Shown here in pieces: positions 2,633 through 57,130 of a DNA stretch of 64,000 nucleotides. The position numbers were made by a program, and so were the translations under genes. The notes under the pieces were generated by a model. That model was not told the DNA's origin. It saw nothing but the letters and a program-made list of their open reading frames with translations, and made no database searches. Source of the stretch: Eledone cirrhosa (Eukaryota); assembly GCA_964016885.1 (NCBI GenBank), contig OZ024751.1, positions 10,850,001 through 10,914,000 on the forward strand. Reading direction: 5' to 3'. Position 1 is the stretch's first letter. Every line of letters begins with the position of its first letter.

Positions 2633-3690
2633 ATATATCATAAAACATGTCTATAGAATCACAAGATAAAATATATACTATTTCCTCTCCCAATTAGCAT
2701 TTATTTTACACCTAATTCTGTTTAGTTGACTATATCTGGGCAATTACGCTGTCGAAATATTCGATAAATATTCCGCTACGGCCGACGCGAAGCGCTAGTT
2801 TCGGTTATTTGTCGGAGATTTCTTCATAGAGGCCTCATTCTTATAGCCTGGTCTATTCGATTTTTTATATGGTTAATTATGCTAATTGGGAGATGAAATA
2901 GTATATATTTTATCTTGTGATTCTATAGACATGTTTTATGATATATAGCACTGATCGTTTAATTTATTAATTTTTCATTGAGCCACAAAGTGACCAGTTG
3001 CAAAACACGTATATGTATATGTATGTATATATATATGTAAACTTTTATATGTAATAATCTCCCATTGGGTTGAGATACAAATTTGGCTGTATTGTGCTGT
3101 GTTTTCTAGCAAAAATGCCACCAGTCGTAAGCAACTACCACACCCCTTCCAACCTGACCGAGACTACGTCACGATTTTTAGCCATTTTGAAATGAATTTC
3201 TTGGCGCGATCAATTTGGAAAATTTAGTGTCTAGATACGAGCGAGCTTCCTGATGAATCCCGCGTTCGAGTTTATATAATTATTACATAATTATTGGAAA
3301 ACTCAAAATACGGACGAAACCATGGTAGAGGTATTTAAATGTAGTTTATTTTACACCTAATTCTGTTTAGTTGACTATATCTGGGCGATTACGCTGTCGA
3401 AATATTCGATAAATATTCCGCTACAGCCGACGCGAAGCGTTAGTTTAGGTTATTTGTCAGAGATTTCTTCATAGAAGCCTCATTCTTATAGCCTGGTCTA
3501 TTCGATTTTTTATATGGTTAATTATGCTAATTGGGAGAGGAAATAGTATATATTTTATCTTGTGATTCTATTAACATGTTTTATGATATATAGCTCTGAT
3601 CGTTTAATTTATAAATTTTTCATTGAGCCACAAAGTGACCAGTTGCAAAACACGTATATGTATATGTATGTATATGTATATGTAAACTTT
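2633..3690 (+). mobile_element. Non-autonomous PLE pLTR/retrozyme-like element (~646 bp unit, ~1.5 copies, inverted 5' piece)
   Basis: 2701-3045 is repeated at 3347-3690. 2633-2700 is the reverse complement of ~2878-2947. It contains a hammerhead and is flanked by (TA)n. Confidence 0.75.
3245..3332 (+). ncRNA. Type I hammerhead ribozyme with extended stem II
   Basis: gcttc-CTGATGA-atcccg..gagttt..aaactc..cggac-GAAA-ccatgg-TA-gaggt, with palindromic stem III (ACCATGGT). Confidence 0.75.
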
Positions 3691-3712
3691 TATATATATA
3701 TATATATGTATT

Positions 3713-3769
<57 letters not shown>

Positions 3770-3770
3770 T

Positions 3771-3817
<47 letters not shown>

Positions 3818-3818
3818 T

Positions 3819-3877
<59 letters not shown>

Positions 3878-3882
3878 TTATG

Positions 3883-3917
<35 letters not shown>

Positions 3918-6536
3918 TTGCATATATATATATGTATTTATATATATGTATTTATATATATGTATTTATATATATATGTATTTGTATATATATATATATT
4001 TGTATATACATATGTATTTATATGTATATATATATATATATTTGTATATACATATGTATTTATATGTATATATATATGTATTTATATGTATATATATATG
4101 TATTTATATGTATATATATATGTATTTATATGTATATATATATGTATTTATATGTATATATATATGTATTTATATGTATATATATATGTATTTATATGTA
4201 TATATATATATGTATTTATATGTATATATATATGTATTTATATGTATATATATATGTATATGTATTTATATATATGTATATGTATTTATATATATATATA
4301 TGTATTTATATGTATATATATATGTATATGTATTTATATATATATATATGTATTTATATATATATGTATCTGTATATGTATTTATATATATATGTATCTG
4401 TATATGTATTTATATATATGTATCTGTATATGTATTTATATATATGTATCTGTATATGTATCTATATATGTATCTGTATATGTATCTATATATGTATCTG
4501 TATATGTATCTGTATATGTATCTGTATATGTATCTGTATATGTATCTGTATATGTATCTGTATATGTATCTGTATATGTATCTGTATATGTATCTATATA
4601 TGTATCTATATATGTATCTATATATATGTATCTATATATATGTATCTATATATATGTATCTATATATATGTATCTAAATATATGTATCTATTTATATATA
4701 TGTATCTATTTATATATATATCTATTTATATATATATATCTATTTATATATATATATCTATTATATATATATATTATTTATATATATATATATATGTATT
4801 TATATATATATATGTATTTATATATAGTATTATATATATATGTATTTATATATATATATGTATTATATATATATATGTATTTATATATATATATGTATTT
4901 ATATATATATATGTATTTATATATATATGTATTTATATATATATATTTATATATTATATATATATATATTTATATATTTATATATATGTATTTATATATA
5001 TATATTTATATATTTATATATATATATTTATATATTTATATATATATATTTATATATTTATATATATATATTTATATATTTATATATATGTATTTATATA
5101 TTTATATATATGTATTTATATATATTTATATATATGTATTTATATATTTATATATATGTATTTATATATATTTATATATATGTATTTATATATTTATATA
5201 TATGTATTTATATATATTTATATATATTTATATATATTTATATATATTTATTATATATATTTATATATATTTATATATATTTATATATAGTATTTATATA
5301 TATATGTATTTATATATATATATTTATATATATATATATATATGTATTTATATATATATATTATTCTAATATATATTATATATTTATAATATATANNNNN
5401 NNNNNNNNNNNNNNNNNNNNNNNNNNNNNNNNNNNNNNNNNNNNNNNNNNNNNNNNNNNNNNNNNNNNNNNNNNNNNNNNNNNNNNNNNNNNNNNNNNNN
5501 NNNNNNNNNNNNNNNNNNNNNNNNNNNNNNNNNNNNNNNNNNNNNNNNNNNNNNNNNNNNNNNNNNNNNNNNNNNNNNNNNNNNNNNNNNNNNNNTATAT
5601 ATGTATATATATATGTATATGTATATATATGTATATATATATGTATATGTATATATATATATGTATATGTATATATATATATATGTATATATATATGTAT
5701 ATGTATATGTATATGTATATATATATGTATATATATGTATATGTATATATATGTATATGTATATGTATATATATATGTATATGTATATGTATATATATGT
5801 ATATGTATATATATGTATATGTATATGTATATATATGTATATGTATATGTATATATATGTATATATATATGTATATGTATATGTATATGTATATATATGT
5901 ATATATATATGTATATGTATATGTATATGTATATATATGTATATATATATGTATATATATATGTATATATATATGTATATATATATGTATATATATATGT
6001 ATATATATATGTATATATATATGTATATGTATATGTATATGTATATATATGTATATGTATATGTATATATATGTATATATATATATATATGTATATGTAT
6101 ATGTATATATATATGTATATATATATATGTATATGTATATATATGTATATATATATATATATGTATATGTATATATATATGTATATATATATATATATGT
6201 ATATGTATATGTATATATATATGTATATATATATGTATATATATATATATATATATGTATATGTATATATATATGTATATATATATATATATATATGTAT
6301 ATGTATATATATGTATATATATATGTATATATATATGTATATATATATATATATGTATATATATATGTATATATATATATATATGTATATATATATGTAT
6401 ATGTATATGTATATATATGTATATATATATATATATATGTATATGTATATGTATATATATATATATGTATATGTATATGTATATATATATGTATATATAT
6501 ATATATATGTATATATATATGTATATGTATATGTAT

Positions 6537-6568
<32 letters not shown>

Positions 6569-6770
6569 GTATATGTATATGTATATATATATGTATATAT
6601 ATATATATATGTATATATATATGTATATGTATATATATATGTATATGTATATATATATGTATATGTATATATATGTATATATATATATATATATGTATAT
6701 GTATATGTATATATATATATATATGTATATGTATATGTATATATATATGTATATATATATATATATGTAT

Positions 6771-6816
<46 letters not shown>

Positions 6817-7089
6817 GTATATATATGTATATATATATATATATGTATATATATATGTATATGTATATATATTTTAGCAATTGGAAAAAAAAAGACCAAT
6901 GGAAACATTGTTTCCTCGGTCCGATTTGACGAAAGTCGATCGATTGGAAAAAAAAAAAAAATGTATATATATATGTATATGTATATATATATGTATATGT
7001 ATATATATATGTATATATATATGTATATATATGTATATATATATGTATATATATGTATATATATATGTATATATATATGTATATATATG

Positions 7090-7154
<65 letters not shown>

Positions 7155-7169
7155 GTATATATATATATG

Positions 7170-7218
<49 letters not shown>

Positions 7219-7379
7219 ATGTATATGTATATATATATGTATATATATATGTATATATATATGTATATATATATATATATGTATGTATATATATGTATAT
7301 ATGTATATATATATGTATATATATATGTATATATATATATATATGTATGTATATATATGTATATATATATATATGTATG

Positions 7380-7410
<31 letters not shown>

Positions 7411-7773
7411 GTATGTATATATATGTATATATATATATATATGTATGTATATATATGTATATATATATATATATGTATGTATATATATGTATATATATAT
7501 ATATATGTATGTATATATATGTATATATATATATGTATGTATATATATGTATATATATATATATATGTATATATATGTATATATATATATATGTATGTAT
7601 ATATATGTATATATATATATATATGTATATATATGTATATATATATATATATGTATATATATGTATATATATATATATATGTATATATATATGTATATAT
7701 ATGTATATATATATGTATATGTATATATATATGTATGTATATATATATATGTATGTATATATATATATGTATG

Positions 7774-7812
<39 letters not shown>

Positions 7813-7993
7813 GTATATATATGTATATATATGTATGTATATATATGTATATATATGTATATATATGTATATGTATATATATGTATATATATGTATATGT
7901 ATATATATGTATATATATGTGTATATGTATATATATGTATATATATGTATATATGTATGTATATGTATATATATATATATATGTATGTATATG

Positions 7994-8042
<49 letters not shown>

Positions 8043-8385
8043 GTATATATATATATGTATATATATATATGTATATATATGTATATATATATGTATATAT
8101 ATGTATATATATGTATATATATATATGTATATATATGTATATATATATATGTATATATATGTATATATATATGTATATATATGTATATATATATATATGT
8201 ATATATATGTATATATATATGTATATATATGTATATATATATATATGTATATATATGTATATATATATGTATATATATGTATATATATATATGTATATAT
8301 ATGTATATATATATATGTATATATATGTATATATATATGTATATATATGTATATATATATGTATATATATATATGTATATATATG

Positions 8386-8416
<31 letters not shown>

Positions 8417-8560
8417 GTATGTATATGTATATATATATGTATATATATATATGTATATATATGTATATATATATATGTATATGTATATATATATGTATAT
8501 ATATGTATATGTATATATATGTATATATATATGTATATATATGTATATATATATGTATGT
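3691..8560. repeat. Very long (TA)n-derived satellite (TATT, TATC, TATG variants)
   Basis: Direct reading; interrupted by an N gap and one ~90 bp island. Confidence 0.95.
5396..5595. other. Assembly gap (200 N)
   Basis: Run of n. Confidence 0.99.
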
Positions 8561-9910
<1,350 letters not shown>

Positions 9911-10897
9911 TATGTAGATAAATCTACCAAGAGTTTACGGTAGTGTCCAATCCGTATGAAGAACTCAATGTATTCCGGATATCATGGAAAGAAGAGATGT
10001 AATGAAAAATCACTTTCGGTGAAAGATAAACGGTATACAGAGTCAAGATAAAATATTAAACAAATAATGAATAAACAATTCCTTATATTAAACAAAAAAA
10101 GTTCATTATTTAACGATCGTTTCTAGGATATATATGTGTTAGAATTGGTATGCATATTCAACAGATCTATGTACAAAATTATACAAAATTATACAAATTA
10201 TCAAGATTAAATATACATACCAACACATATATACGCCGTCTTCAGAAATAATGAAGTATATTTATTGATAATAACAACAATTCAAAATTTCAGGTCCGTT
10301 TGGGAACAAAATTGACCAATGAAAACACAAAGGGTTAAATGCAGTTCGGTGTGTGTATATACATGCAAAACCCCCACACATATTTTACAAAAATGTATGT
10401 ATAATTTGTATACGCATACTAAAAGGATGGATGCAAATACAAAATTTCAAGGTTAATGTCTCTGTAAGTTTATAATGCACAGATAAGATGCGTATTGACA
10501 CAAGTATGAAGTTAAGTATATAAATATATTTTTTCATACTCACACATATCCGTACAATCACACATACACGCGCGTATATGCATAAATATACACATAACCA
10601 CGAACATACAAACACACACACACCCCCACTCACATTTATATATGTGGATATAAAATCATAAGCACATGGATATTAATTCACTCACATAAAACACTGGCAC
10701 ACACATTTTTAGATCAAGATACAGAAATTAGGTGGGAGGGGGGGGGAGAGGTCAGTATTCAACGGTCTGAGCAGACTGCCTAATATAGATGTATCTATAA
10801 ACTAAGAAAATAAAATAAAAAATAATAAATAAACATTAAAGAGGAAAGAATAGAAAGAAAAAAGAAAAAAGAAAAAAGAAAAAAGAAATATATCAAG

Positions 10898-10941
<44 letters not shown>

Positions 10942-11156
10942 CATACACATACATATATATATATATATATACACACACATATATATATAATATACATATA
11001 TATACACATAGACACACACACACACATACATAAATATACACACATATACAAACACATACATACATATACACACATCCACACTAAGAACATACATACACAC
11101 ACATATATAAACATATACATATACACACATACATACATATACACATATACATACAA

Positions 11157-11207
<51 letters not shown>

Positions 11208-11523
11208 CATATATATGTATATACACGTACATATACACACACATATACATATAATCACACATACTATATAGACACAGATATATATAACCACACACATACA
11301 TGCACATATACAACACTTACATACTAATATACATACAGATATACACATACATAGCTATATATACACACAAATATATACAGACTTACATATATACATACAG
11401 ACAAATACTTACGCATCTATATATCGGTATATACATACAAACACCACTACACTATCACACAACTTAGAAATACAAAGAGAAAGGTATATACCTATACACA
11501 CATACATATACAAATAGAAAAAC

Positions 11524-11554
<31 letters not shown>

Positions 11555-11620
11555 TATATATATACATATATATATATATAACATATATATATATATATAT
11601 ATATACACATACATATACAC
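9911..11620 (-). repeat. 3' pLTR of the PLE
   Basis: Matches 16945-18640 apart from microsatellite length changes and a few substitutions or indels. Confidence 0.9.
10102..10255 (-). ncRNA. Type I hammerhead ribozyme in the 3' pLTR
   Basis: Minus strand: ttcattattt-CTGAAGA-cggcgtatatatgtgtt..aacacatatatatccta-GAAA-cgatcg-TT-aaataatgaa. Stem I is 10 bp, stem III is palindromic, and the stem II insert is ~115 nt. Confidence 0.75.
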
Positions 11621-11760
11621 ATACACACACATACACATACACACACATACATACATGTACACACACATAGAAATATATACGCATACACACATACACACAT
11701 ACATATAAAGTCATACACACACATACACCTACACGAACATACACATACACATATATAAAG

Positions 11761-11791
<31 letters not shown>

Positions 11792-11853
11792 ACACATACA
11801 CTCATACACATATATATAAAAAATAAATAATAAAGATATATACATATATATAT

Positions 11854-11894
<41 letters not shown>

Positions 11895-12539
11895 CACATA
11901 AATATACATACACATACATACACACATACATAGACATACATGTACATACATACACGTACATCGATATACATACATATATATATACACACATAGACATATA
12001 CATACATACACACACAACTTACATACACACATATATATACATGTATATTCATACATAGAATTAGATATATAATCATACATACATATGCACTTACTTATAC
12101 TCATATATACAAATACATACGCATCCATATATGCGTATATACATAAAAACACCACTACAACCTCACCTAACTCAGACATACAAATAAAAATAAAAAGGCA
12201 TATGTATATACATATATACACGCATTAATAGAGATATATATATACATACATATATATATATATATATACATATATATACATATATATATATATATACACA
12301 CATACATTCATATATATATATATATAGATACCCACACACACATACCACCATAAATACACATACAAACAACCACATATACATATATATACACACGTATATA
12401 TATATATATATACACACACATAAAAAACAGACATGCACATATATATATATTTTTTTACACTTATATATACACATATTATATACACATACACAACCTCACA
12501 TATACACACATACACATAAGTTATATTATAATAATAAAA

Positions 12540-12578
<39 letters not shown>

Positions 12579-12667
12579 CATATATATAAATATAATATAT
12601 ATACATATAAACATATACATACATATATACACACATACGAATATAGACATATATTCACACATAGACA

Positions 12668-12707
<40 letters not shown>

Positions 12708-14350
12708 TACATATACACAGACACATATACACACTCACATATATATGTGTGTGCACACACACATATATACACACATACACATATATACACATAAACACAT
12801 ATATGTGCATACATGCACACACACACACATATATCACATAGACACGAAGATAGACATATAAATAGAGAGACATACATATATATACAACACACATACACAC
12901 ACATACATATACACACATATATACATATACATATATATATACATATATATATTCCTATATATACATATATACACACATATACACATATATACATATATAT
13001 ATATATACATACACATATACATACACACATTCACATACACATACATATATACATGCATATATACACATATATACATACATACACACACTCATATATACAC
13101 ACACAATCTTACATTCATATTTGCATGCGCATATATGTATTTTTATATTCAGATATAAATACCCAAACCTATATAGACACCTACCTACATATATATTCAT
13201 ACATACACGCTTACAAATACAGATGATAATAGTATGGGGGAAAGGGGGGGTTTGGAGAAGGGGATCATAGTAAATATATGTTTCAAGAAACATAGAATAT
13301 TTTCCGTATCTTGATCCAATGTATGTTTTTACATAGTTTCAGTGTTAGGAAATACAATAAACAAGAACTAAGGCAAAATCTATGCATCTCAAAATAAACA
13401 AGTATACCATTAATTATATGTTAACTAAACCAAAGATAGTTAACATATTGATTTCTAAGGTGTAAATTAGTTAGGTTTATAATATTTGAAGCAGAATTTT
13501 GAAGTTAAATAGTAGTAGAGTATTAATTATAGTATAACTAAATTAAAGTTAATAACGTTATGGTATCAATATTAGGAAATGAATTTAGTAATAGGGAAAA
13601 AACAAATAAAATAAAGTATTACATCGGTAGTAGAATATAAATTATAGGTTAACTAAATTAAAAATTATATATTTATTTCTATAGTATATGTTAATTAGGT
13701 ATATAATACATAAAGCAGATATTGTATTTTATCAATAGCATAATATCATTATATGCAAATAGAAATCAAAATTAATACAAATACATATACATATACATAC
13801 ACATACATATATACATATATATACACATATATATATATATACATATATACACATATACATACACACACACGTACACATATACATATACATATCTTTTTCA
13901 AAAAATTGTATAGAATATATTAACTAGGTATATATCCAAAACACATCCCATTCTATGATTACATGACATTCTGCAATTCGTCTGTATAAGGATACTAATT
14001 TTAAGCAAATTAAAATTAAATTTTTAGGTTGATTAAAATTAAAACCAAATTATAAATATATTTCTAAAATGTATATTAATTAGGTCTATAATACTAAAAA
14101 TTATTTCTCTGTCATTGGATACACGATATTATTTTGTTATATTTTATCTGTAAAAGAATTATAATAAAAGGTTTAAATAAATTAAAATTAATCTATAAAT
14201 TAAATTACTAAGTATATATTAGTAATATTTAAAGGTTTTTCACAATTTATGATTACATAATATTTTATATTCTCATCTGTAAAATTTTAATTAAATTAAA
14301 TTTATAGGTTAACTAACATTTAAATTAAATTAATTTCTAAAATAATGTTA

Positions 14351-16792
14351 TTAATTAGGTTTATAATATTTAAATGTTTTTTTTAGTTTATGATTACACG
14401 ATATAATTAATTCCTGTCGTTTATTTAATAAGATATCCTTAGACTTCATTATTTCAAATAGTTCTTGGGAACATAATCTACATTCATTTCTATTATTTTG
14501 ATAAGGGGTGGCTCTTTTGAGCACACTCCAGGTCAAATCATATTCTATATTCTTATTTTTATAACTATTGATTTTTTCTGCTAGAGATGTTGTATTAGCC
14601 AGTGCGGCATTTTTAAAACTATGCTTGTGGGTATTAAACCTTGTCTTAAAATTGTTAGAGGTAGCTCCTATATATGAGCAAATAGAATCTTTAGTTTTAA
14701 CATTACATTTATAGACTATGTTGTTAACAAGACAATTCCCTTTTAATGGGCAGTTTGCTTTGTTTCTACAGTTACATCCTTTCGTTAATTCTGTATTTGA
14801 GGAGATATTATGGTTAATTTGATGTACTGGTGGTATACTTATGGTTTTCTTACATTTATATGCATTATACGCACTTATATTTTGTTTTATGTTATTTGTT
14901 GTAGAGTATGAGAATTTAACTGTAGACCTATTTAAGATTTGATGGTATTTGTGGTTTGGCGGGAAGTTTTTCTCAAGGATATAAAAAAATTTTTTAGCAA
15001 TATTATCCTTAACTTGTAAATTAAAAGGAGCATTATACCAAGTAACCCGTCTATTACGGTTTCTATGTTGTTTATTATTTTTATTATTTTTATAGGTTGT
15101 ATCGTGATTTTTACTAGGAGGATTAATGTTAATGATCTCACCACAACTATTTTTAGTTATATTTGTAGATTTAGGTGTTTTATCCTTTTTATTAGGAGTT
15201 TTATTATTAATATTTATTAGAGTTGTATGATGAGTAGTTTTTTGAGAGTTACTATACTTTATATTAGAAGATTTGGTATTTTGGGGTATAGTGTGGGTGG
15301 CATTTAGGTGTGTACTATTCATTTGGTGTTTGTTGGTAATATTATGTTGTATGCTTTCAGTATTTTTAGTAGAAGGTATATACTCTAATCTATTTTTGTG
15401 GCCACTTCTATCTAGAGCTTCGTTATAGAAGGTCGCATTTTTATCAAATACATCTTGGTTAGAAGAAAGGTTAGAAATTCTAAGTGATATATTATATGCA
15501 AGGTTTTTAAGGATAGATTTAGGGTGATTAGATTGTGAGTGTATGTAATGTAAGTTTTGGTTAGGTTTATGGTAAGGTTGGTAGATACCCGTAGCTAAAT
15601 CTAAAGTTATATCTAGGAAATTTACTACTTTACTTGTTTTTTCAAAAGTAATATTAAGATTATAATAGTCTTTAAGGAAAGTTCTAATATGTTTTTTGTT
15701 TTTTTCAATTTCTGAAAGGCTAAGGTTGTTAGAAAGAAGAAGACAGTCATCACGATATAAACCACCTTTGAGGTGGGGAAAAGACGCATTTATGTTGAAA
15801 AGGAGAAAGAGGCCCACAAGATCAGTAATTTGGGCGGAATCGCTTGAACCCATAGTAATATCAAAAAGATTACTGTATGTGTTTCTGGTCCAGTATTCAT
15901 TCTGAAATTTAATAAGTGTTAGTCTAGCATGTGTAATAATGTTAATGTCATCCAAAGTTAAGTTAGATCTATTTTTAGCAAATATCAATGCTTTGTTCAG
16001 GAGTATAGGTGATATAGAAGAATAGTAATTATCTATATCAAATTGTAGGAATGAAGCAGAAGATTTACACCTAATATTTTTAAACCAGTTAATTACCTGG
16101 GAGGTGTTTTCCCAGAGTGGTAAAATAACGTGTTTTCTTATTTGTGGGATGACTCTATCTAAAATTTTTTTGCTAATTATTCCAATATCTGATTTGGAGG
16201 GACATATAAGTCTAATAGAAGGATTTGAGTTAAAGTTAGATTTGTGATCTTTCAGGTTGAAGTGTGGTCTTTTCAATGCCAAAGGTTCAGTTCTATCTTC
16301 AATGTTTAGTTTTTTTACTATGTTGTGTGTTTTGTTGTTGATGTTGGTGAGTGACACATTATTAGATTTTTTGTAATTTTTTCTGAGTTCTTTATATATG
16401 AACTCGTTATAATGTTCAATATCCATATGATACAAGTTACCAGTTTTGTCCGAGTGGACATGGATTTTTTTAGACTTTTTTAGGTCCAATAGGGTAGAAT
16501 CAAGGTCCTTTTGAAAGACGGATTTATACTTTTTAAATTTGAGGTGTTTAATTAAATTAAAAAGGTCTTTCTCGAAGTCTTCAAGTAAAAAGTTGTGTGG
16601 TGGATTCTTGTAAGTATTGAAATCATACATATATTTCCGATCTGCTTGTTTAGATTTTCTATCGAAGTGGTAGGCTCTCCATCTAACCCTTCTGATAAAA
16701 TTATTAGTTTTCTGAATCATAAGGAGTAAGAAGTCATCCTTAGAAGGTATTGGTATGTTTTTTAAGGAGGTTCCTAAATATTGTTTTTCCAT
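14351..16792 (-). CDS. PLE polyprotein: reverse transcriptase plus GIY-YIG endonuclease (813 aa from the first ATG; open to 16813)
   Basis: N-terminal SLKNIPIP..FIRRVRWRA; RT motifs QFDIDNYYSSI, TMGSSDSAQ, YRDD, NFLDITL, YHKP..SNHP; Cys linker CNCRNKANCPLKGNC; endonuclease IVY..YIGAT..FKTRFNTH..C.LC..E..LLNKR. No internal stops. Confidence 0.95.
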   Translation of the reverse strand: MEKQYLGTSLKNIPIPSKDDFLLLMIQKTNNFIRRVRWRAYHFDRKSKQADRKYMYDFNTYKNPPHNFLLEDFEKDLFNLIKHLKFKKYKSVFQKDLDSTLLDLKKSKKIHVHSDKTGNLYHMDIEHYNEFIYKELRKNYKKSNNVSLTNINNKTHNIVKKLNIEDRTEPLALKRPHFNLKDHKSNFNSNPSIRLICPSKSDIGIISKKILDRVIPQIRKHVILPLWENTSQVINWFKNIRCKSSASFLQFDIDNYYSSISPILLNKALIFAKNRSNLTLDDINIITHARLTLIKFQNEYWTRNTYSNLFDITMGSSDSAQITDLVGLFLLFNINASFPHLKGGLYRDDCLLLSNNLSLSEIEKNKKHIRTFLKDYYNLNITFEKTSKVVNFLDITLDLATGIYQPYHKPNQNLHYIHSQSNHPKSILKNLAYNISLRISNLSSNQDVFDKNATFYNEALDRSGHKNRLEYIPSTKNTESIQHNITNKHQMNSTHLNATHTIPQNTKSSNIKYSNSQKTTHHTTLININNKTPNKKDKTPKSTNITKNSCGEIININPPSKNHDTTYKNNKNNKQHRNRNRRVTWYNAPFNLQVKDNIAKKFFYILEKNFPPNHKYHQILNRSTVKFSYSTTNNIKQNISAYNAYKCKKTISIPPVHQINHNISSNTELTKGCNCRNKANCPLKGNCLVNNIVYKCNVKTKDSICSYIGATSNNFKTRFNTHKHSFKNAALANTTSLAEKINSYKNKNIEYDLTWSVLKRATPYQNNRNECRLCSQELFEIMKSKDILLNKRQELIISCNHKLKKTFKYYKPN

Positions 16793-16944
16793 TGTGATAT
16801 GGATGATGGACAATTGAAAGAGCTCAACTAAATGTATATGGGTTTACAAAATCATACATATATATATGTATATACATAAATATAAAATTAATACACACAT
16901 ACAGTACAAAAATATGAATATTTCCGTGAAAATAGGAGCAAAAT

Positions 16945-17942
16945 TATGTAGATAAATCTACCAAGAGTTTACGGTAGTGTCCAATCCGTATGAAGAACTC
17001 AATGTATTCCGGATATCATGGAAAGAAGAGATGTAATGAAAAATCACTTTCGGTGAAAGATAAACGGTATACAGAGTCAAGATAAAATATTAAACAAATA
17101 ATGAATAAACAATTCCTTATATTAAACAAAAAAAGTTCATTATTTAACGATCGTTTCTAGGATATATATGTGTTAGAATTGGTATGCATATTCAACAGAT
17201 CTATGTACAAAATTATACAAAATTATACAAATTATCAAGATTAAATATACATACCAACACATATATACGCCGTCTTCAGAAATAATGAAGTATATTTATT
17301 GATAATAACAACAATTCAAAATTTCAGGTCCGTTTGGGAACAAAATTGACCAATGAAAACACAAAGGGTTAAATGCAGTTCGGTGTGTGTATATACATGC
17401 AAAACCCCCACACATATTTTACAAAAATGTATGTATAATTTGTATACGCATACTAAAAGGATGGATGCAAATACAAAATTTCAAGGTTAATGTCTCTGTA
17501 AGTTTATAATGCACAGATAAGATGCGTATTGACACAAGTATGAAGTTAAGTATATAAATATATTTTTTCATACTCACACATATCCGTACAATCACACATA
17601 CACGCGCGTATATGCATAAATATACACATAACCACGAACATACAAACACACACACACCCCCACTCACATTTATATATGTGGATATAAAATCATAAGCACA
17701 TGGATATTAATTCACTCACATAAAACACTGGCACACACATTTTTAGATCAAGATACAGAAATTAGGTGGGAGGGGGGGGGGGGAGAGGTCAGTGTTCAAC
17801 GGTCTGAGCAGACTGCCTAATATAGATGTATCTATAAACTAAGAAAATAAAAATAAAAAATAATAAATAAACATTAAAGAGGAAAGAATAGAAAGAAAAA
17901 AGAAAAAAGAAAAAAGAAAAAAGAAAAAAGAAATATATCAAG

Positions 17943-17978
<36 letters not shown>

Positions 17979-18195
17979 CATACACATACATATATATATA
18001 TATATATACACACACATATATATATAATATACATATATATACACATAGACACACACACACACATACATAAATATACACACATATACAAACACATACATAC
18101 ATATACACACATCCACACTAAGAACATACATACACACACATATATAAACATATACATATACACACATACATACATATACACATATACATACAAAT

Positions 18196-18244
<49 letters not shown>

Positions 18245-18640
18245 CATATATATGTATATACACGTACATATACACACACATATACATATAATCACACATA
18301 CTATATAGACACAGATATATATAACCACACACATACATGCACATTTACAACACTTACATACTAATATACATACAGATATACACATACATAGCTATATATA
18401 CACACAAATATATACATACAGACAAATACTTACGCATCTATATATCGGTATATACATACAAACACCACTACACTATCACACAACTTAGAAATACAAAGAG
18501 AAAGGTATATACCTATACACACATACATATACAAATAGAAAAACATATAGATATATATATATATATATATACACACACATATATATATACATATATATAT
18601 ATATAACATATATATATATATATATATACACATACATATA
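16945..18640 (-). repeat. 5' pLTR of the PLE
   Basis: Direct repeat of 9911-11620. Confidence 0.9.
17136..17289 (-). ncRNA. Type I hammerhead ribozyme in the 5' pLTR
   Basis: Same sequence as 10102-10255, about 340 nt upstream of the ATG. Confidence 0.75.
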
Positions 18641-18690
18641 TCAGGTCCGTTTGGGAACAAAATTGACCAATGAAAACACAAAGGGTTAAA
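18641..18690. repeat. 50 bp extra copy of an internal pLTR segment
   Basis: TCAGGTCCGTTTGGGAAC..AAGGGTTAAA equals 10290-10339 and 17324-17373. Confidence 0.9.
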
Positions 18691-19067
18691 AACCAGTATG
18701 ACTCTAAAAACCGGTTTGTCTGTGTGTTTACATACAGAATAGCTGGCCACTCACAGTAAAGTGACCAGTGAAAAAACTTGGTACATCTACATATTTATAC
18801 GTGTGTGTATTCATATACATACTAGTATTTCAGTATATATATATGGATGTACATCTTTAACTTAATTGTTTAAGCGTCAGTCATACAAAAGTGAGTTACA
18901 AACGAAATGAAATTTAATTTCGTTTCGTTATTTGTTTTTATCGTCTCCGTTGAACCGGTACTTACTCACACTCTATGCAAATTGGTCTGCCCACTACTAA
19001 TTTTCATAGAAAAAGCATATAACGATATGTGCTTTTACGATTCTCTAGAGAGGCCGGAAGATAGGTA

Positions 19068-19112
19068 AATATTGCTGATGAGTTGTAACAACAACGAAAC
19101 TAGTCCAATATT
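19068..19112 (+). ncRNA. Minimal type I hammerhead ribozyme, copy 1
   Basis: aatattg-CTGATGA-gttg(taacaa)caac-GAAA-ctag-TC-caatatt; canonical core, GUC cleavage site after 19105. Confidence 0.93.
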
Positions 19113-19532
19113 CCTTGTCTGGCTTTCTGGAGAATAGAGGAAAGGTGTTTCCTCAAAAACCAGTATGACTCTAAAAACCGGTTTGTCTGTGTGTTTACAT
19201 ACAGAATAGCTGGCCACTCACAGTAAAGTGACCAGCGAAAAAACTTGGTACGTCTACATATGTATACGTGTGTGTATTCATATACATACTAGTATTTCAG
19301 TATATATATATGGATGTACATCTTTAACTTAATTGTTTAAGCGTCAGTCATACAAAAGTGAGTTACAAACGAAACGAAATTTAATTTCGTTTCGTTATTT
19401 GTTTTTATCGTCTCCGTTGAACCGGTACTTACTCACTCTATGCAAATTGGTCTGCCCACTACTAATTTTCATAGAAAAAGCATATAACGATATGTGCTTT
19501 TACGATTCTCTAGAGAGGCCGGAAGATAGGTA

Positions 19533-19577
19533 AATATTGCTGATGAGTTGTAACAACAACGAAACTAGTCCAATATT
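19533..19577 (+). ncRNA. Minimal type I hammerhead ribozyme, copy 2
   Basis: Identical to copy 1. Confidence 0.93.
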
Positions 19578-19999
19578 CCTTGTCTGGCTTTCTGTAGAAT
19601 AGAGGAAAGGTGTTTCCTCAAAAACCAGTATGACTCTAAAAACCGGTTTGTCTGTGTGTTTACATACAGAATAGCTGGCCACTCACAGTAAAGTGACCAA
19701 GGAAAAAACTTGGTACATCTACATATGTATACGTGTGTGTATTCATATACATACTAGTATTTCAGTATATATATATGGATGTACATCTTTAACTTAATTG
19801 TTTAAGCGTCAGTCATACAAAAGTGAGTTACAAACGAAACGAAATTTAATTTCGTTTCGTTATTTGTTTTTATCGTCTCCGTTGAATCGGTACTTACTCA
19901 CACTCTATGCAAATTGGTCTGCCCACTACTAATTTTCATAGAAAAAGCATATAACGATATGTGCTTTTACGATTCTCTAGAGAGGCCGGAAGATAGGTA

Positions 20000-20044
20000 A
20001 ATATTGCTGATGAGTTGTAACAACAACGAAACTAGTCCAATATT
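20000..20044 (+). ncRNA. Minimal type I hammerhead ribozyme, copy 3
   Basis: Identical to copy 1. Confidence 0.93.
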
Positions 20045-20340
20045 CCTTGTCTGGCTTTCTGGAGAATAGAGGAAAGGTTTTTCCTCAAAAACCAGTATGA
20101 CTCTAAAAACCGGTTTGTCTGTGTGTTTACATACAGAATAGCTGGCCACTCACAGTAAAGTGACCAGTGAAAAAACTTGGTACATCTACATATGTATACG
20201 TGTGTGTATTCATATACATACTAGTATTTCAGTATATATATATGGATGTACATCTTTAACTTAATTGTTTAAGCGTCAGTCATACAAAAGTGAGTTACAA
20301 ACGAAACGAAATTTAATTTCGTTTCGTTATTTGTTTTTAT

Positions 20341-22846
<2,506 letters not shown>

Positions 22847-41739: not shown

Positions 41740-42560
41740 ACAACAACTATAACTGCATAAACAACAATTGTGAATAGAAAGGTCTAGAGAACAACAGTAA
41801 CAACAACAACAACAGCAACGTCTAGAGAACAACAGTAACAACAACTACAACAGCAAGTTCTAGAGAACAACAGTAACAACAACAGCAACGTCTAGAGAAC
41901 AACAGCAAGGTCTAGAGAACAACAGTAACAACAACTACTACAACAGCAAGGTCTAGAGAACAACAGCAACGTCTAGAGAACAACAGTAACAACAACAGCA
42001 ACGTCTAGAGAAAAGTAACAACTACAACAACAAGGTCTAGAGAACAACAGTAACAACAACTACAACAACAAGGTCTAGAGAACAGTAACAACGACAGCGA
42101 CTAAAGCAGCAAAGTATTAACAGTAAAAACAACAACAACAACAGTAACACAACAACGACATTGCTAACAACAGCAATGTATAAACAGTAACAACTTGAAC
42201 AACATCAAGGTATGCCGAACAACAGTAATAGCTACAACAACAGTAATAACAGCTACAACAACAATATCAACAACACCAGTAAGGTTTAGAAACAACAGTA
42301 ATAACAACTACATCAACAACACCAGTAAGGGTTAGACACAACAACATCAACAACACCAGTAAGGTTTAGAAACATAACAGCTACAACAATAACAACAGTA
42401 AGGTTTAGACACAACAGTAACAACACAAGTAAGGTTTAGACACAACAGTAATAACATTTAACACCAGTAAAGTTTAGACAACAGTGACAACAACAACACC
42501 AGTAAGGTTTAGACAAAACAGTAACAACAGCTACAACAATATCAACAACACCAGTAAGAT
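41740..42560. repeat. Diverged (AAC)-based minisatellites (TCTAGAGAAC and GTAAGGTTTAGA units)
   Basis: Direct reading. Confidence 0.85.
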
Positions 42561-42564
42561 TAAG

Positions 42565-45500
42565 ACACAACAACAGTAACAACAACACCATCTACAACAA
42601 TAACAGTAACACCAACTCCAGGAACAACAACAACAGTAACACCAACTCCAGGGACAACAACAGTAACACCAACTCCAGGAACAACAACAACAACAGTAAC
42701 ACCAACTCCAGGAACAATAACAACAACAACAGTAACACCAACTCCAGGAACAATAACAACAACAACAGTAACACCAACTCCAGGAACAATAACAACAACA
42801 ACAGTAACACCAACTCCAGGAACAACAACAGTAACACCAACTCCAGGAACAACAACAACAACAACAGTAACACCAACTCCAGGAACAACAACAACAACAG
42901 TAACACCAACTCCAGGAACAACTATAACAACAACAGTAACACCAACTCCAGGAACAACTATAACAACAACAACAGTAACACCAACTCCAGGAACAACTGT
43001 AACACCAACTCCAGGAACAACTGTAACACCAACTCCAGGAACAACAATAACAACAACAACAGTAACACCAACTCCAGGAACAACAATAACAACAACAGTA
43101 ACACCAACTCCAGGAACAACAACAGTAACACCAACTCCAGGAACAACAACAACAACAGTAACACCAACTCCAGGAACAACAACAGTAACACCAACTCCAG
43201 GAACAACAACAGTAACACCAACTCCAGGAACAACAACAGTAACACCAACTCCAGGAACAACAACAGTAACACCAACTCCAGGAACCACAATAACAACAAC
43301 AGTAACACCAACTCCAGGAACAACAACAGTAACACCAACTCCAGGAACAACAACAGTAACACCAACTCCAGGAACAACAACAGTAACACCAACTCCAGGA
43401 ACAACAACAGTAACACCAACTCCAGGAACCACAATAACAACAACAGTAACACCAACTCCAGGAACAACAACAGTAACACCAACTCCAGGAACAACAACAG
43501 TAACACCAACTCCAGGAACAACAACAGTAACACCAACTCCAGGAACAACAACAGTAACACCAACTCCAGGAACAACAATAACAACAACAGTAACACCAAC
43601 TCCAGGAACCACAATAACAACAACAGTAACACCAACTCCAGGAACAACAACAACAACAGTAACACCAACTCCAGGAACCACAATAACAACAACAGTAACA
43701 CCAACTCCAGGAACCACAATAACAACAACAGTAACACCAACTCCAGGAACAACAACAACAACAGTAACACCAACTCCAGGAACAACAATAACAACAACAG
43801 TAACACCAACTCCAGGAACAACAATAACAACAACAGTAACACCAACTCCAGGAACAACAATAACAACAACAGTAACACCAACTCCAGGAACAACAATAAC
43901 AACAACAGTAACACCAACTCCAGGAACAACAATAACAACAACAGTAACACCAACTCCAGGAACAACAACAACAACAGTAACACCAACTCCAGGAACAACT
44001 ATAACTACAGTAACACCAACTCCAGGAACAACTATAACAACAGTAATACCAACTCCAGGAACAACTATAACAACAGTAACACCAACTCCAGGAACAACTA
44101 TAACAACAGTAACACCAACTCCAGGAACAACTATAACAACAGTAACACCAACTCCAGGAACAACTATAACAACAGTAACACCAACTCCAGGAACAACTAT
44201 AACAACAGTAACACCAACTCCAGGAACAACTATAACAACAGTAACACCAACTCCAGGAACAACTATAACAACAGTAACACCAACTCCAGGAACAACTATA
44301 ACAACAGTAACACCAACTCCAGGAACAACTATAACAACAGTAACACCAACTCCAGGAACAACTATAACAACAGTAACACCAACTCCAGGAACAACAACAA
44401 CAACAGTAACACCAACTCCAGGAACAACTATAACAACAGTAACACCAACTCCAGGAACAACTATAACAACAACAGTAACACCAACTCCAGGAACAACTAT
44501 AACAACAACAGTAACACCAACTCCAGGAACAACTATAACAACAACAGTAACACCAACTCCAGGAACAACAACAACAACAGTAACACCAACTCCAGGAACA
44601 ACTATAACAACAGTAACACCAACTCCAGGAACAACAACAACAACAGTAACACCAACTCCAGGAACAACTATAACAACAGTAACACCAACTCCAGGAACAA
44701 CTATAACAACAGTAACACCAACTCCAGGAACAACAACAACAACAGTAACACCAACTCCAGGAACAACAATAACAACAACAGTAACACCAACTCCAGGAAC
44801 AACAATAACAACAGTAACACCAACTCCAGGAACAACAACAACAACAGTAACACCAACTCCAGGAACAACAATAACAACAACAGTAACACCAACTCCAGGA
44901 ACAACAACAACAACAGTAACACCAACTCCAGGAACAACAACAACAACAGTAACACCAACTCCAGGAACAACAATAACAACAACAGTAACACCAACTCCAG
45001 GAACAACAACAACAACAGTAACACCAACTCCAGGAACAACAATAACAACAACAGTAACACCAACTCCAGGAACAACAACAACAACAGTAACACCAACTCC
45101 AGGAACAACAACAACAACAGTAACACCAACTCCAGGAACAACAATAACAACAACAGTAACACCAACTCCAGGAACAACAATAACAACAACAGTAACACCA
45201 ACTCCAGGAACAACTATAACAACAACAGTAACACCAACTCCAGGAACAACAACAACAACAGTAACACCAACTCCAGGAACAACAACAACAACAACAGTAA
45301 CACCAACTCCAGGAACAACAACAACAACAGTAACACCAACTCCAGGAACAACAACAACAACAGTAACACCAACTCCAGGAACAACAACAACAACAGTAAC
45401 ACCAACTCCAGGAACAACAACAACAACAGTAACACCAACTCCAGGAAGAACAACAACAACAGTAACACCAACTCCAGGAACAACAATAACAACAACAGTA

Positions 45501-48500
45501 ACACCAACTCCAGGAACAACAATAACAACAACAGTAACACCAACTCCAGGAACAACTATAACAACAACAGTAACACCAACTCCAGGAACAACAACAACAA
45601 CAGTAACACCAACTCCAGGAACAACAACAACAACAACAGTAACACCAACTCCAGGAACAACAACAACAACAGTAACACCAACTCCAGGAACAACAACAAC
45701 AACAGTAACACCAACTCCAGGAACAACAACAACAACAGTAACACCAACTCCAGGAACCACAATAACAACAACAGTAACACCAACTCCAGGAACCACAATA
45801 ACAACAACAGTAACACCAACTCCAGGAACAACAATAACAACAACAGTAACACCAACTCCAGGAACAACAATAACAACAACAGTAACACCAACTCCAGGAA
45901 CAACAATAACAACAACAGTAACACCAACTCCAGGAACAATAACAACAACAGTAACACCAACTCCAGGAACAACAATAACAACAACAGTAACACCAACTCC
46001 AGGAACAACAATAACAACAACAGTAACACCAACTCCAGGAACAACAATAACAACAACAGTAACACCAACTCCAGGAACAACAACAACAACAGTAACACCA
46101 ACTCCAGGAACAACAATAACAACAACAGTAACACCAACTCCAGGAACCACAATAACAACAACAGTAACACCAACTCCAGGAACAACAATAACAACAACAG
46201 TAACACCAACTCCAGGAACAACAATAACAACAACAGTAACACCAACTCCAGGAACAACAATAACAACAACAGTAACACCAACTCCAGGAACCACAATAAC
46301 AACAACAGTAACACCAACTCCAGGAACCACAATAACAACAACAGTAACACCAACTCCAGGAACAACAATAACAACAACAGTAACACCAACTCCAGGAACA
46401 ACAATAACAACAACAGTAACACCAACTCCAGGAACAACAACAACAACAGTAACACCAACTCCAGGAACAACAATAACAACAACAGTAACACCAACTCCAG
46501 GAACAACAATAACAACAACAGTAACACCAACTCCAGGAACAACAATAACAACAACAGTAACACCAACTCCAGGAACAACAATAACAACAACAGTAACACC
46601 AACTCCAGGAACAACAACAACAACAGTAACACCAACTCCAGGAACAACAATAACAACAACAGTAACACCAACTCCAGGAACCACAATAACAACAACAGTA
46701 ACACCAACTCCAGGAACAACAATAACAACAACAGTAACACCAACTCCAGGAACAACAATAACAACAACAGTAACACCAACTCCAGGAACAACAATAACAA
46801 CAACAGTAACACCAACTCCAGGAACAACAATAACAACAACAGTAACACCAACTCCAGGAACAACAATAACAACAACAGTAACACCAACTCCAGGAACAAC
46901 AATAACAACAACAGTAACACCAACTCCAGGAACCACAATAACAACAACAGTAACACCAACTCCAGGAACAACAATAACAACAACAGTAACACCAACTCCA
47001 GGAACAACAATAACAACAACAGTAACACCAACTCCAGGAACAACAACAACAGTAACACCAACTCCAGGAACAACAATAACAACAACAGTAACACCAACTC
47101 CAGGAACAACAATAACAACAACAGTAACACCAACTCCAGGAACCACAATAACAACAGTAACACCAACTCCAGGAACAACAACAACAACAGTAACACCAAC
47201 TCCAGGAACAACAATAACAACAACAGTAACACCAACTCCAGGAACAACAATAACAACAACAGTAACACCAACTCCAGGAACCACAATAACAACAACAGTA
47301 ACACCAACTCCAGGAACAACAACAACAACAGTAACACCAACTCCAGGAACAACAATAACAACAACAGTAACACCAACTCCAGGAACAACAATAACAACAA
47401 CAGTAACACCAACTCCAGGAACCACAATAACAACAACAGTAACACCAACTCCAGGAACAACAATAACAACAACAGTAACACCAACTCCAGGAACCACAAT
47501 AACAACAACAGTAACACCAACTCCAGGAACAACAATAACAACAACAGTAACACCAACTCCAGGAACCACAATAACAACAACAGTAACACCAACTCCAGGA
47601 ACAACAATAACAACAACAGTAACACCAACTCCAGGAACCACAATAACAACAACAGTAACACCAACTCCAGGAACAACAATAACAACAACAGTAACACCAA
47701 CTCCAGGAACCACAATAACAACAACAGTAACACCAACTCCAGGAACAACAATAACAACAACAGTAACACCAACTCCAGGAACCACAATAACAACAACAGT
47801 AACACCAACTCCAGGAACAACAATAACAACAACAGTAACACCAACTCCAGGAACCACAATAACAACAACAGTAACACCAACTCCAGGAACAACAATAACA
47901 ACAACAGTAACACCAACTCCAGGAACCACAATAACAACAACAGTAACACCAACTCCAGGAACAACAATAACAACAACAGTAACACCAACTCCAGGAACCA
48001 CAATAACAACAACAGTAACACCAACTCCAGGAACAACAATAACAACAACAGTAACACCAACTCCAGGAACCACAATAACAACAACAGTAACACCAACTCC
48101 AGGAACAACAATAACAACAACAGTAACACCAACTCCAGGAACCACAATAACAACAACAGTAACACCAACTCCAGGAACAACAATAACAACAACAGTAACA
48201 CCAACTCCAGGAACAACAACAACAACAGTAACACCAACTCCAGGAACAACAATAACAACAACAGTAACACCAACTCCAGGAACCACAATAACAACAACAG
48301 TAACACCAACTCCAGGAACAACAACAACAACAGTAACACCAACTCCAGGAACAACAATAACAACAACAGTAACACCAACTCCAGGAACAACAATAACAAC
48401 AACAGTAACACCAACTCCAGGAACCACAATAACAACAGTAACACCAACTCCAGGAACAACAACAACAACAGTAACACCAACTCCAGGAACAACAATAACA

Positions 48501-51500
48501 ACAACAGTAACACCAACTCCAGGAACAACAATAACAACAACAGTAACACCAACTCCAGGAACAACAACAACAACAGTAACACCAACTCCAGGAACAACAA
48601 CAACAACAGTAACACCAACTCCAGGAACAACAATAACAACAACAGTAACACCAACTCCAGGAACAACTATAACAACAACAGTAACACCAACTCCAGGAAC
48701 CACAATAACAACAACAGTAACACCAACTCCAGGAACAACAATAACAACAACAGTAACACCAACTCCAGGAACAACAACAACAACAGTAACACCAACTCCA
48801 GGAACAACAACAACAACAGTAACACCAACTCCAGGAACAACAACAACAACAGTAACACCAACTCCAGGAACAACAATAACAACAACAGTAACACCAACTC
48901 CAGGAACAACTATAACAACAACAGTAACACCAACTCCAGGAACAACTATAACAACAACAGTAACACCAACTCCAGGAACAACAACAGTAACACCAACTCC
49001 AGGAACAACAATAACAACAACAGTAACACCAACTCCAGGAACAACAACAACAACAGTAACACCAACTCCAGGAACAACAACAACAACAGTAACACCAACT
49101 CCAGGAACAACAATAACAACAACAGTAACACCAACTCCAGGAACAACAATAACAACAACAGTAACACCAACTCCAGGAACAACAACAACAACAGTAACAC
49201 CAACTCCAGGAACAACAACAACAACAGTAACACCAACTCCAGGAACAACAATAACAACAACAGTAACACCAACTCCAGGAACAATAACAACAACAGTAAC
49301 ACCAACTCCAGGAACAACTATAACAACAACAGTAACACCAACTCCAGGAACAACAACAGTAACACCAACTCCAGGAACCACAATAACAACAACAGTAACA
49401 CCAACTCCAGGAACAACAATAACAACAACAGTAACACCAACTCCAGGAACAACAATAACAACAACAGTAACACCAACTCCAGGAACAACTATAACAACAA
49501 CAGTAACACCAACTCCAGGAACAACTATAACAACAACAGTAACACCAACTCCAGGAACAACAATAACAACAACAGTAACACCAACTCCAGGAACCACAAT
49601 AACAACAACAGTAACACCAACTCCAGGAACAACAATAACAACAACAGTAACACCAACTCCAGGAACAACAATAACAACAACAGTAACACCAACTCCAGGA
49701 ACCACAATAACAACAGTAACACCAACTCCAGGAACAACAATAACAACAACAGTAACACCAACTCCAGGAACCACAATAACAACAACAGTAACACCAACTC
49801 CAGGAACAACAACAACAACAACAGTAACACCAACTCCAGGAACAACAATAACAACAACAGTAACACCAACTCCAGGAACAACAACAACAACAGTAACACC
49901 AACTCCAGGAACAACTATAACAACAACAGTAACACCAACTCCAGGAACAACTATAACAACAACAGTAACACCAACTCCAGGAACAACTATAACAACAACA
50001 GTAACACCAACTCCAGGAACAACAATAACAACAACAGTAACACCAACTCCAGGAACAACAACAACAACAGTAACACCAACTCCAGGAACAACTATAACAA
50101 CAACAGTAACACCAACTCCAGGAACAACTATAACAACAACAGTAACACCAACTCCAGGAACAACTATAACAACAACAGTAACACCAACTCCAGGAACAAC
50201 AATAACAACAACAGTAACACCAACTCCAGGAACCACAATAACAACAACAGTAACACCAACTCCAGGAACAACAATAACAACAACAGTAACACCAACTCCA
50301 GGAACAACAATAACAACAACAGTAACACCAACTCCAGGAACCACAATAACAACAGTAACACCAACTCCAGGAACAACAATAACAACAACAGTAACACCAA
50401 CTCCAGGAACCACAATAACAACAACAGTAACACCAACTCCAGGAACAACAACAACAACAACAGTAACACCAACTCCAGGAACAACAATAACAACAACAGT
50501 AACACCAACTCCAGGAACAACTATAACAACAACAGTAACACCAACTCCAGGAACAACTATAACAACAACAGTAACACCAACTCCAGGAACAACAATAACA
50601 ACAACAGTAACACCAACTCCAGGAACCACAATAACAACAGTAACACCAACTCCAGGAACAACAATAACAACAACAGTAACACCAACTCCAGGAACCACAA
50701 TAACAACAACAGTAACACCAACTCCAGGAACAACAACAACAACAACAGTAACACCAACTCCAGGAACAACAATAACAACAACAGTAACACCAACTCCAGG
50801 AACAACAACAACAACAGTAACACCAACTCCAGGAACAACAACAACAACAGTAACACCAACTCCAGGAACAACAATAACAACAACAGTAACACCAACTCCA
50901 GGAACAACTATAACAACAACAGTAACACCAACTCCAGGAACAACTATAACAACAACAGTAACACCAACTCCAGGAACAACAACAGTAACACCAACTCCAG
51001 GAACAACTATAACAACAACAGTAAGACCAACTCCAGGAACAACTATAACAACAACAGTAACACCAACTCCAGGAACAACTATAACAACAACAGTAACACC
51101 AACTCCAGGAACAACAATAACAACAACAGTAACACCAACTCCAGGAACAACAATAACAACAACAGTAACACCAACTCCAGGAACAACAATAACAACAACA
51201 GTAACACCAACTCCAGGAACAACAATAACAACAACAGTAACACCAACTCCAGGAACAACAACAACAACAGTAACACCAACTCCAGGAACAACAACAACAA
51301 CAGTAACACCAACTCCAGGAACAACAATAACAACAACAGTAACACCAACTCCAGGAACAACAACAACAACAGTAACACCAACTCCAGGAACAACAATAAC
51401 AACAACAGTAACACCAACTCCAGGAACAACAACAACAACAGTAACACCAACTCCAGGAACAACAACAACAACAGTAACACCAACTCCAGGAACAACAATA

Positions 51501-56951: not shown

Positions 56952-57130
56952 ATTGGCAGTATCGGTAGAGGGTCGGACGCCATGTTTTGAAGCATAGTTA
57001 CCTCCCTTTATGGTCTGAGTTCAAATCCCGCCGAGGTTAACTTTGCCTTTCATCCTTACGGGGTCGATAAAATAAAGTACCTGTAATGCACTGGGTATTG
57101 CTGGTCTTGTGCCAAAAAGTAGAAACATTA
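56952..57130 (+). mobile_element. tRNA-derived SINE (family A)
   Basis: TTGGCAGTATCGGTAGAGGGTCGG..GAGTTCAAATCCCGCCGAGG. Confidence 0.85.

Follow-up and report, generated by a model that had tools for sequence, protein, structure and literature searches.

Layout of the fused locus

We analyzed a stretch of 64,000 nucleotides (nt) from Eledone cirrhosa (GenBank assembly GCA_964016885.1, contig OZ024751.1, positions 10,850,001 to 10,914,000; G000:C11:10850001-10914000 in our notation), which is called the window hereafter. The host genome is 3.0 Gb, and its other loci are designated by L and a number. In the window, a Penelope-like element (PLE) and a hammerhead retrozyme are fused head-to-head within a (TA)n microsatellite. 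As shown in Table 1, (TA)n is followed by the PLE on the minus strand, a 50-nt re-copied piece of the PLE, the retrozyme array on the plus strand and again (TA)n. This anatomy had been given in a preliminary description of the locus, and every coordinate of it holds. The 50-nt piece matches positions 10290-10339 and 17324-17373, and the AAA is common to this piece and the retrozyme array. There is no TA tract between the piece and the array, and AAA is their only overlap; the joint is free of a spacer, as had been described. Furthermore, no remainder of the PLE was found in or beyond the right (TA)n tract. The locus shows features of a chimeric insertion: the two parts are opposed in orientation, each has its own 3′ end on its own side, and they are joined directly 5′ to 5′. 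A target-site duplication around both parts would be masked by (TA)n, and both tracts have one polarity. The fusion is real in the assembly, where a 23-mer spanning the junction occurs only once in the 3.0-Gb genome.

Table 1 Features of the fused locus (positions in the window).
Feature	Position	Strand	Remark
Left (TA)n tract	9347..9913	.	G-interrupted on the plus strand (G 54, C 0)
PLE unit, full, 7034 bp	9911..16944	-	3′ end at 9911 is the distal fixed end of the family ("7034")
PLE proximal fixed end ("6897")	10048..10048	-	lies 137 nt short of the distal end; the window copy reads through it
PLE hammerhead	10104..10253	-	predicted cut between 10112 and 10111
PLE open reading frame, reverse transcriptase and GIY-YIG, 814 aa	14354..16795	-	stop-free
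Partial tandem PLE copy (pseudo-long terminal repeat, unit 5328-7034)	16945..18640	-	holds the second hammerhead (17138-17287)
Re-copied PLE piece, 50 nt (unit 6606-6655)	18641..18690	-	orientation as the PLE arm
AAA microhomology at the joint of PLE piece and retrozyme arm	18688..18690	.	
Retrozyme arm, 3.5 monomers of 467 bp	18688..20341	+	3′ end at monomer position 254, the distal fixed end of the family
Retrozyme type I hammerhead	19068..19112	+	further copies at 19533-19577 and 20000-20044; predicted cut after 19105
Right (TA)n tract	20338..22834	.	strand polarity as the left tract (G 58, C 1)

The Penelope-like element of the window

The element has the features of an endonuclease-containing (EN+) PLE, namely one open reading frame (ORF) for reverse transcriptase (RT) and GIY-YIG endonuclease, a partial tandem pseudo-long terminal repeat (pseudo-LTR), inverted copies and a tail. 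The pseudo-LTR differs from positions 9911-11617 by 3 substitutions in 1681 aligned bases and by 7 indels in low-complexity runs, and its 5′ truncation falls inside a TA/CA-rich stretch. The 814-aa ORF contains the motifs RWR38, DKT116, YRDD347, CxCX5C674 (CNCRNKANC674) and YIG708 (VY-YIG); these names were assigned in part from the description of Hydra-clade PLEs by Craig et al. 2021 (PMC8557442), as far as its text was available. Cys697/706 and His723/725, which bear on whether the CCHH motif is absent as in the Hydra clade, are also present, as read from the ORF itself. A Pfam search of the ORF gave 0 matches. A search for relatives gave 13,930 at E<1e-3, the best of which was 45% identical. 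Each of the two repeats has one hammerhead, with cores starting at 10245 and 17279 on the minus strand. The predicted fold has an 8-bp helix I, the core CUGAAGA, a helix II insertion of about 110 nt and a palindromic helix III; an Rfam scan gave 0 matches at the gathering score.

RWK-like and DKT motifs, a CxCX5C linker, a C-terminal endonuclease, a hammerhead and a (TA)n target are all found here, and by this motif content the window PLE can be assigned to the Hydra type. In the available part of PMC8557442, Hydra-clade PLEs are likewise described with a C-terminal GIY-YIG domain, RWx and DKT motifs, the CxCX5C linker, a hammerhead in the pseudo-LTR, the (TA)n target and tandem and inverted copies. 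In contrast to the Hydra elements, which are "generally <3 kb" in that source, the window PLE spans 7 kb per unit, including a microsatellite-rich 3′ region of 4.4 kb; its tail is 137 nt (30-40 in Hydra-clade PLEs), and its hammerhead has the 110-nt helix II insertion. The family is abundant and young: the 40 copies scored, from 1391 candidates, were 99-100% identical. Two further PLE families in the genome are called PLE-B and PLE-C. Other copies of PLE-B are 88-93% identical, hence the family is old. In PLE-C, 39 other copies are 98-100% identical, and this family is as young as that of the window PLE.

The 467-nt retrozyme

The window array consists of 3.5 monomers of 467 bp, which are 98% identical to each other, and has a GC content of 34%. 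It contains three type I hammerheads with cores starting at 19075, 19540 and 20007 on the plus strand. Each is predicted to have a 7-bp helix I, the core CUGAUGA, a 5-bp helix II and a palindromic ACUAGU helix III; these hammerheads, too, stayed below the Rfam gathering score. For a hammerhead with a palindromic helix III, a dimer is required according to the part of PMC4209133 consulted. The distal end on TA has 2122 exact copies genome-wide, against 0 for a reversed control, and the proximal end has 808 forward-strand matches (the reverse-strand count includes duplicates). Thus, the monomers are non-coding, follow one another in tandem and have one type I hammerhead apiece, and they occur as dispersed, low-GC mobile copies, as expected for a non-LTR retrozyme. 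Metazoan non-LTR retrozymes, as presented in the available parts of Cervera and de la Pena 2020 (PMC7229834) and Li, Clavereau and Pollet 2026 (10.64898/2026.07.22.740005), are also non-coding, low-GC tandem monomers with one type I hammerhead each. The monomer length of 467 nt exceeds the 170-400 nt of the former study and is within the 51-972 of the latter.

All four window monomers carry 151C>T, which has only 4 other matches genome-wide. A variant common to all monomers would be expected if a single circular template was copied. Among 33 arrays, 10 had no internal variation, and minority variants were mostly singletons; arrays therefore appear to start uniform. This uniformity is indirect support for putative self-cleavage and a putative circular RNA in vivo. 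A source array with the variants of the window was not found in the genome search, and L185 has 151T but none of the private variants of the window that it covers. In L033 and L037, single variants recur across the monomers of both arms (271G>C and 297G>A), which suggests multimeric or mixed templates. L043 (G000:C25:19.84 Mb) is a retrozyme outside a microsatellite, with a visible target-site duplication of 10-11 bp.

Both families insert as two opposed arms

Two opposed arms were present in 22 of 30 other retrozyme loci. For 21 of these two-armed loci both ends were retrieved, and in every one an arm terminating at monomer position 250-254 was paired with one terminating at 177-186. The PLE follows the same rule. 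Twelve of 20 PLE loci were two-armed, and five of these showed the 7034 and 6897 ends directly. We predicted the ends of seven unseen PLE partner arms, and all seven were at 6897 or 6892. A coordinate census was then made on C1:0-99.65 Mb with exact end motifs (listed ends 78, 57, 100 and 33), in which ends facing head-to-head within 20 kb were counted as pairs. It gave at least 28 retrozyme 180+254 pairs against 0.45 by chance and at least 23 PLE 6897+7034 pairs against 0.33 by chance. Among the ends listed, pairs of like with like numbered 1, 1, 1 and 0, which is the chance level. When 80 further retrozyme arms were inspected, the opposite arm was seen in 46 rows (including one duplicated locus and one hairpin self-match), and wherever the terminal end of that arm was visible (27 of 27 rows), it belonged to the other end class. 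Second arms of only 9-20 nt were observed in L058, L104, L107, L109, L110, L119, L153 and L167.

In both families, the arms end on (TA)n and meet at their 5′-truncated ends through overlaps of 1-15 nt or re-copied fillers. Of 65 retrozyme arm junctions, 34 had an overlap, 5 were blunt and 26 had fillers of 1-47 nt, the long fillers being mostly re-copied pieces. Among 15 PLE arm junctions, 8 overlapped by 1-7 nt, 2 were blunt and 5 had fillers; antisense re-copies of 22 and 129 nt, which resemble the filler of the window, were found in two.

The in vitro study of the Poseidon PLE PAc (Frangieh et al. 2024, PMC11167929; cited from the sections available) showed that the protein cuts and extends both strands. 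In that study, RT begins at two internal RNA sites, the stretch between which is the genomic tail, and ribozyme cleavage is dispensable. The two-site tail and the priming on both strands are alike in PAc and in the families described here. PAc showed no difference of start site between the strands, whereas the insertions here pair the two sites almost strictly. The same sections report no trans template. Because its two end sites are like those that bound the PAc tail, the retrozyme carries a PLE-type footprint. These observations support PLE-type twin priming as the probable normal insertion mode of both families. Moreover, there is a strong case, read from insertion ends, that PLE enzymes mobilize the retrozyme at the level of the family, and the two-site pairing is the best evidence for it.

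Origin of the fusion

The preliminary description had explained the fusion by one integration event, in which the PLE RT used its own RNA and a retrozyme circle by twin priming or template switch. We consider the chances even that the fusion was made in one insertion, with a PLE enzyme priming both sides of a (TA)n break and one arm derived from each RNA. A fuller version, namely one integration at a single break with an autonomous Hydra-type PLE RNA as the template on one side and a retrozyme circle, copied in rolling fashion, on the other, falls just short of an even chance. In an insertion of both arms at once, both strands of (TA)n would have been nicked. The left complementary DNA (cDNA) would have started at the PLE distal site, run 8.7 kb through two hammerheads on an uncut multimer or circle, and then jumped back to copy 50 nt a second time. 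On the right, the cDNA would have started at the retrozyme distal site and made 3.5 rounds on one template, probably a circle. Finally, the two cDNA ends would have annealed at AAA/TTT. Because both arms used the distal site, two separately loaded ribonucleoproteins would be a better fit than a single dimer on a single RNA.

Twin priming, the form of the junction and the shared target speak for one event. The window junction, with its 3-nt overlap and re-copied piece, is typical of the joints between two arms of one insertion. Both families target (TA)n and are active now, and both arms are very young, with a PLE divergence under 0.2%. One polarity is seen in both tracts and the PLE has no continuation on the right, in contrast to the nested locus L083 described below. 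Under sequential insertion, the same geometry would be expected roughly 0.03-0.76 times per genome, given assumed inputs. Furthermore, L1 chimeras of opposite orientation were ascribed to twin priming, not to template switching, in the available text of Law and Burns 2026 (PMC13174262). As in those antisense chimeras, an autonomous element and another RNA are opposed at one site in the window. The L1 chimeras were verified by target-site duplications and dating; here the duplication is masked by (TA)n, and the enzyme class differs.

Several observations weigh against one event. The first is age. Within the 1655 bp of the retrozyme arm, 8 private events (9 substitutions) were counted; for the PLE the count was 8 over 4558 unique positions, with 3 more between its repeats. 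The composition-adjusted ratio of retrozyme to PLE is 2.3-4.8 by events and up to 5.4 by bases; the two-sided p for the age difference is 0.02-0.11, and the likelihood ratio for the same age is 0.11-0.84. Both private variant patterns tested were unique to the window arm, and because of this and the 10 invariant arrays the clock looks valid. The private changes could come from a heterogeneous template whose source is unassembled, but no such source was found. The two families agree in target, and the age comparison of the two arms leans marginally against equal age. The second observation concerns templates. In 61 two-armed retrozyme loci (ten overlapping, duplicate or complex loci were excluded beforehand), the arms were identical at diagnostic positions in 49 loci, against 2.9% between loci, and differed by 5% or less in 60, against 15% between loci. 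Judging from these haplotypes, two-template events appear to be rare, and a normal insertion seems to draw its two arms from one RNA or source. Third, a head-to-head fusion with the window PLE was found in 0 of 30 retrozyme loci and 0 of 80 further arms, so that the search for further fusions, which had been proposed as a check, yielded no second case among these 110. Fourth, sequential insertion can leave no spacer; L169, L148 and some 6 of 16 single PLE arms are examples. Finally, in the order of the ends after the ribozyme, the window combines distal with distal, which by this order would not be the normal pairing. We considered that the two ends might be complementary through a shared TTATTTGTTT motif, but this idea was dropped, since the ribozyme order and the end motifs of PLE-B and PLE-C point otherwise.

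Sequential insertion or deletion, taken together, may account for the fusion, at a probability that we place somewhat below even. Of these, the sequential route is the better, although on its own we judge it less likely than not. An older retrozyme, with a single distal arm or a tiny second arm, would have been present in (TA)n, and a single-armed PLE would later have inserted just to its left; the spacer would have been lost by resection, and the PLE cDNA end, bearing a 50-nt re-copy of its own, would have annealed at AAA. The apparently 2.3-4.8 times greater age of the retrozyme arm fits this order, but the age difference is marginal. The distal+distal pairing and the abutment of about 6 of 16 single PLE arms on non-TA sequence are also as expected, and 7034 is the commoner PLE end (4330 versus 1560 exact matches). 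A retrozyme and a PLE share one TA tract at L083, L155, L231 and L245; however, among the ends listed, cross-family neighbors within 20 kb are at the chance level, without excess. For this route both the tract and the orientation must be right and the spacer must be lost entirely; the number expected per genome is that given above.

Long perfect palindromes are prone to deletion, and repair by polymerase theta leaves microhomology and templated inserts. It is improbable, but conceivable on this basis, that two adjacent complete two-armed insertions, one of the PLE and one of the retrozyme, lost their inner arms and that microhomology repair added a 50-nt insert templated from the nearby pseudo-LTR. 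In L148, two retrozyme units of different subfamilies are joined without a spacer, which is in favor of such a deletion. On the other hand, two rare steps would have to occur in the very short time allowed by the PLE divergence, and fillers like this one are seen where the two arms of ordinary insertions meet.

A chimera of two repeat-rich loci made by the assembly is very improbable. In favor of it, the junction is unique, long (TA)n flanks the region, and no junction-bridging piece was found among the matches listed for contigs X1-X3 of one sample (S1) and RAD (restriction-site-associated DNA) run X19. The X1-X3 contigs and X19 reads contain both families and may be from another individual; this absence is uninformative and no refutation. 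On the other hand, a re-copied piece of 50 nt with a 3-nt overlap, as is typical of these families, would not be expected from a misjoin, and both tracts have one polarity. The fusion is probably biological.

The least probable explanation is a template switch, which was one option of the preliminary description and is taken here as a single strand copied across the two RNAs. Re-copied pieces do show jumping by RT, and L168 has a co-directional retrozyme/PLE-B junction of ambiguous origin, but a simple switch yields parts of the same orientation (PMC13174262, in the text available). Those of the window are opposed, and each has a fixed 3′ end of its own on (TA)n; only with an antisense RNA as template would this explanation escape contradiction.

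Candidate helper enzymes

It had been suggested that the fusion pairs a specific helper with its retrozyme. This pairing is unsupported because a second young and intact PLE family exists. PLE-C is Hydra-like and has an open 758-aa frame in L230 (41-45% identity; L230:1500-7430, G000:C1164). Its hammerhead core is CUGAUGA, like that of the retrozyme. The two ends of PLE-C are 69 nt apart, and proximal+distal pairs were found in L229, L233, L237, L240 and L243 among L228-L245. This spacing is closer to that of the retrozyme (69-74 nt) than is the 137 nt of the window PLE. The PLE-C reference, cut from L226/L227, spans a scaffold gap, and only its ends and the ORF part were used. The retrozyme had no significant similarity to the 3′ region of either PLE: an equally high score was reached by 9 of 200, 71 of 300 and 49 of 300 shuffles. 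From its ends and its hammerhead core, PLE-C is a candidate helper of the 467-nt retrozyme. Even if the fusion was made in one event, the enzyme of the window PLE or that of PLE-C could have made the retrozyme arm.

Other junctions and neighboring features

Among the other junctions inspected, L083:1000-5830 (G000:C1:90.88 Mb) was the only coordinate candidate for a head-to-head fusion. It was rejected: a two-armed retrozyme with an 11-nt second arm is nested in the (TA)n of an older PLE copy, which shows that nesting in PLE microsatellites occurs. L077 was also rejected, as its parts are on the same strand with a scaffold gap between them, and so was L169, where the neighbor is the 3′ end of a short interspersed element (SINE)-like repeat joined co-directionally. 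In L168:4265-4530 (G000:C1:95.15 Mb), an 85-nt retrozyme distal arm is joined co-directionally, with a short duplication, to a truncated PLE-B arm; whether this is a nested insertion or a template switch is ambiguous. No direct retrozyme junction was found in 18 PLE-C loci.

L148:1788-4527 (G000:C1:67.84 Mb) contains two retrozyme units, each complete with both arms and each from a different subfamily; they are fused tail-to-tail, and the fusion point is inside the palindromic hairpin at about monomer position 240, without TA. A SINE-like repeat of 670-740 bp, with a fixed-motif end on (TA)/(GTAT)n, is very frequent near these loci (for example, L090, L169, L031 and L097). In the window, a short repeat, TA-anchored and containing an inverted repeat, is located at 9200-9346, and look-alikes were seen at about 34150 of the window and in L060, L071, L072, L154 and L168. 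A run of N (scaffold gap) at about 5400-5590 is within a long (TA)n at 3655-8562. Two Thr/Pro-rich open frames (TTTVTPTPG repeats; 4270 and 1700 codons) with near-identical ends are present at 42506-55376 and 57076-62329 on the plus strand; they may be mucin-like exons or satellite.

Significance for retrozyme mobilization

PLEs were called "a strong candidate" as the mobilizers of retrozymes (PMC7229834), and co-occurrence and homology to a Xenopus pseudo-LTR also point to them (10.64898/2026.07.22.740005). In the parts of these two sources that were available, the mobilizing enzyme of animal retrozymes is proposed, not demonstrated, and the insertion anatomy, the two fixed ends and a fusion with a PLE are not described. 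Our literature search, whose coverage did not extend to subscription journals, found no paper on a PLE-retrozyme fusion.

Under the strict pairing rule, the retrozyme bears an insertion signature that has been considered unique to PLEs. Because the exact RNA start sites and intact ORFs of two young PLEs (814 aa for the window PLE and 758 aa for PLE-C in L230) are at hand, the in vitro assay of PMC11167929, as described in its available sections, can test trans-mobilization and helper specificity. If the single-event explanation is true, the fusion would physically record the action of a PLE enzyme in trans on a retrozyme, and it would name a concrete pair of RT and RNA. Moreover, the two priming reactions at a PLE break could then use different RNAs, which would be a route to new composite elements.

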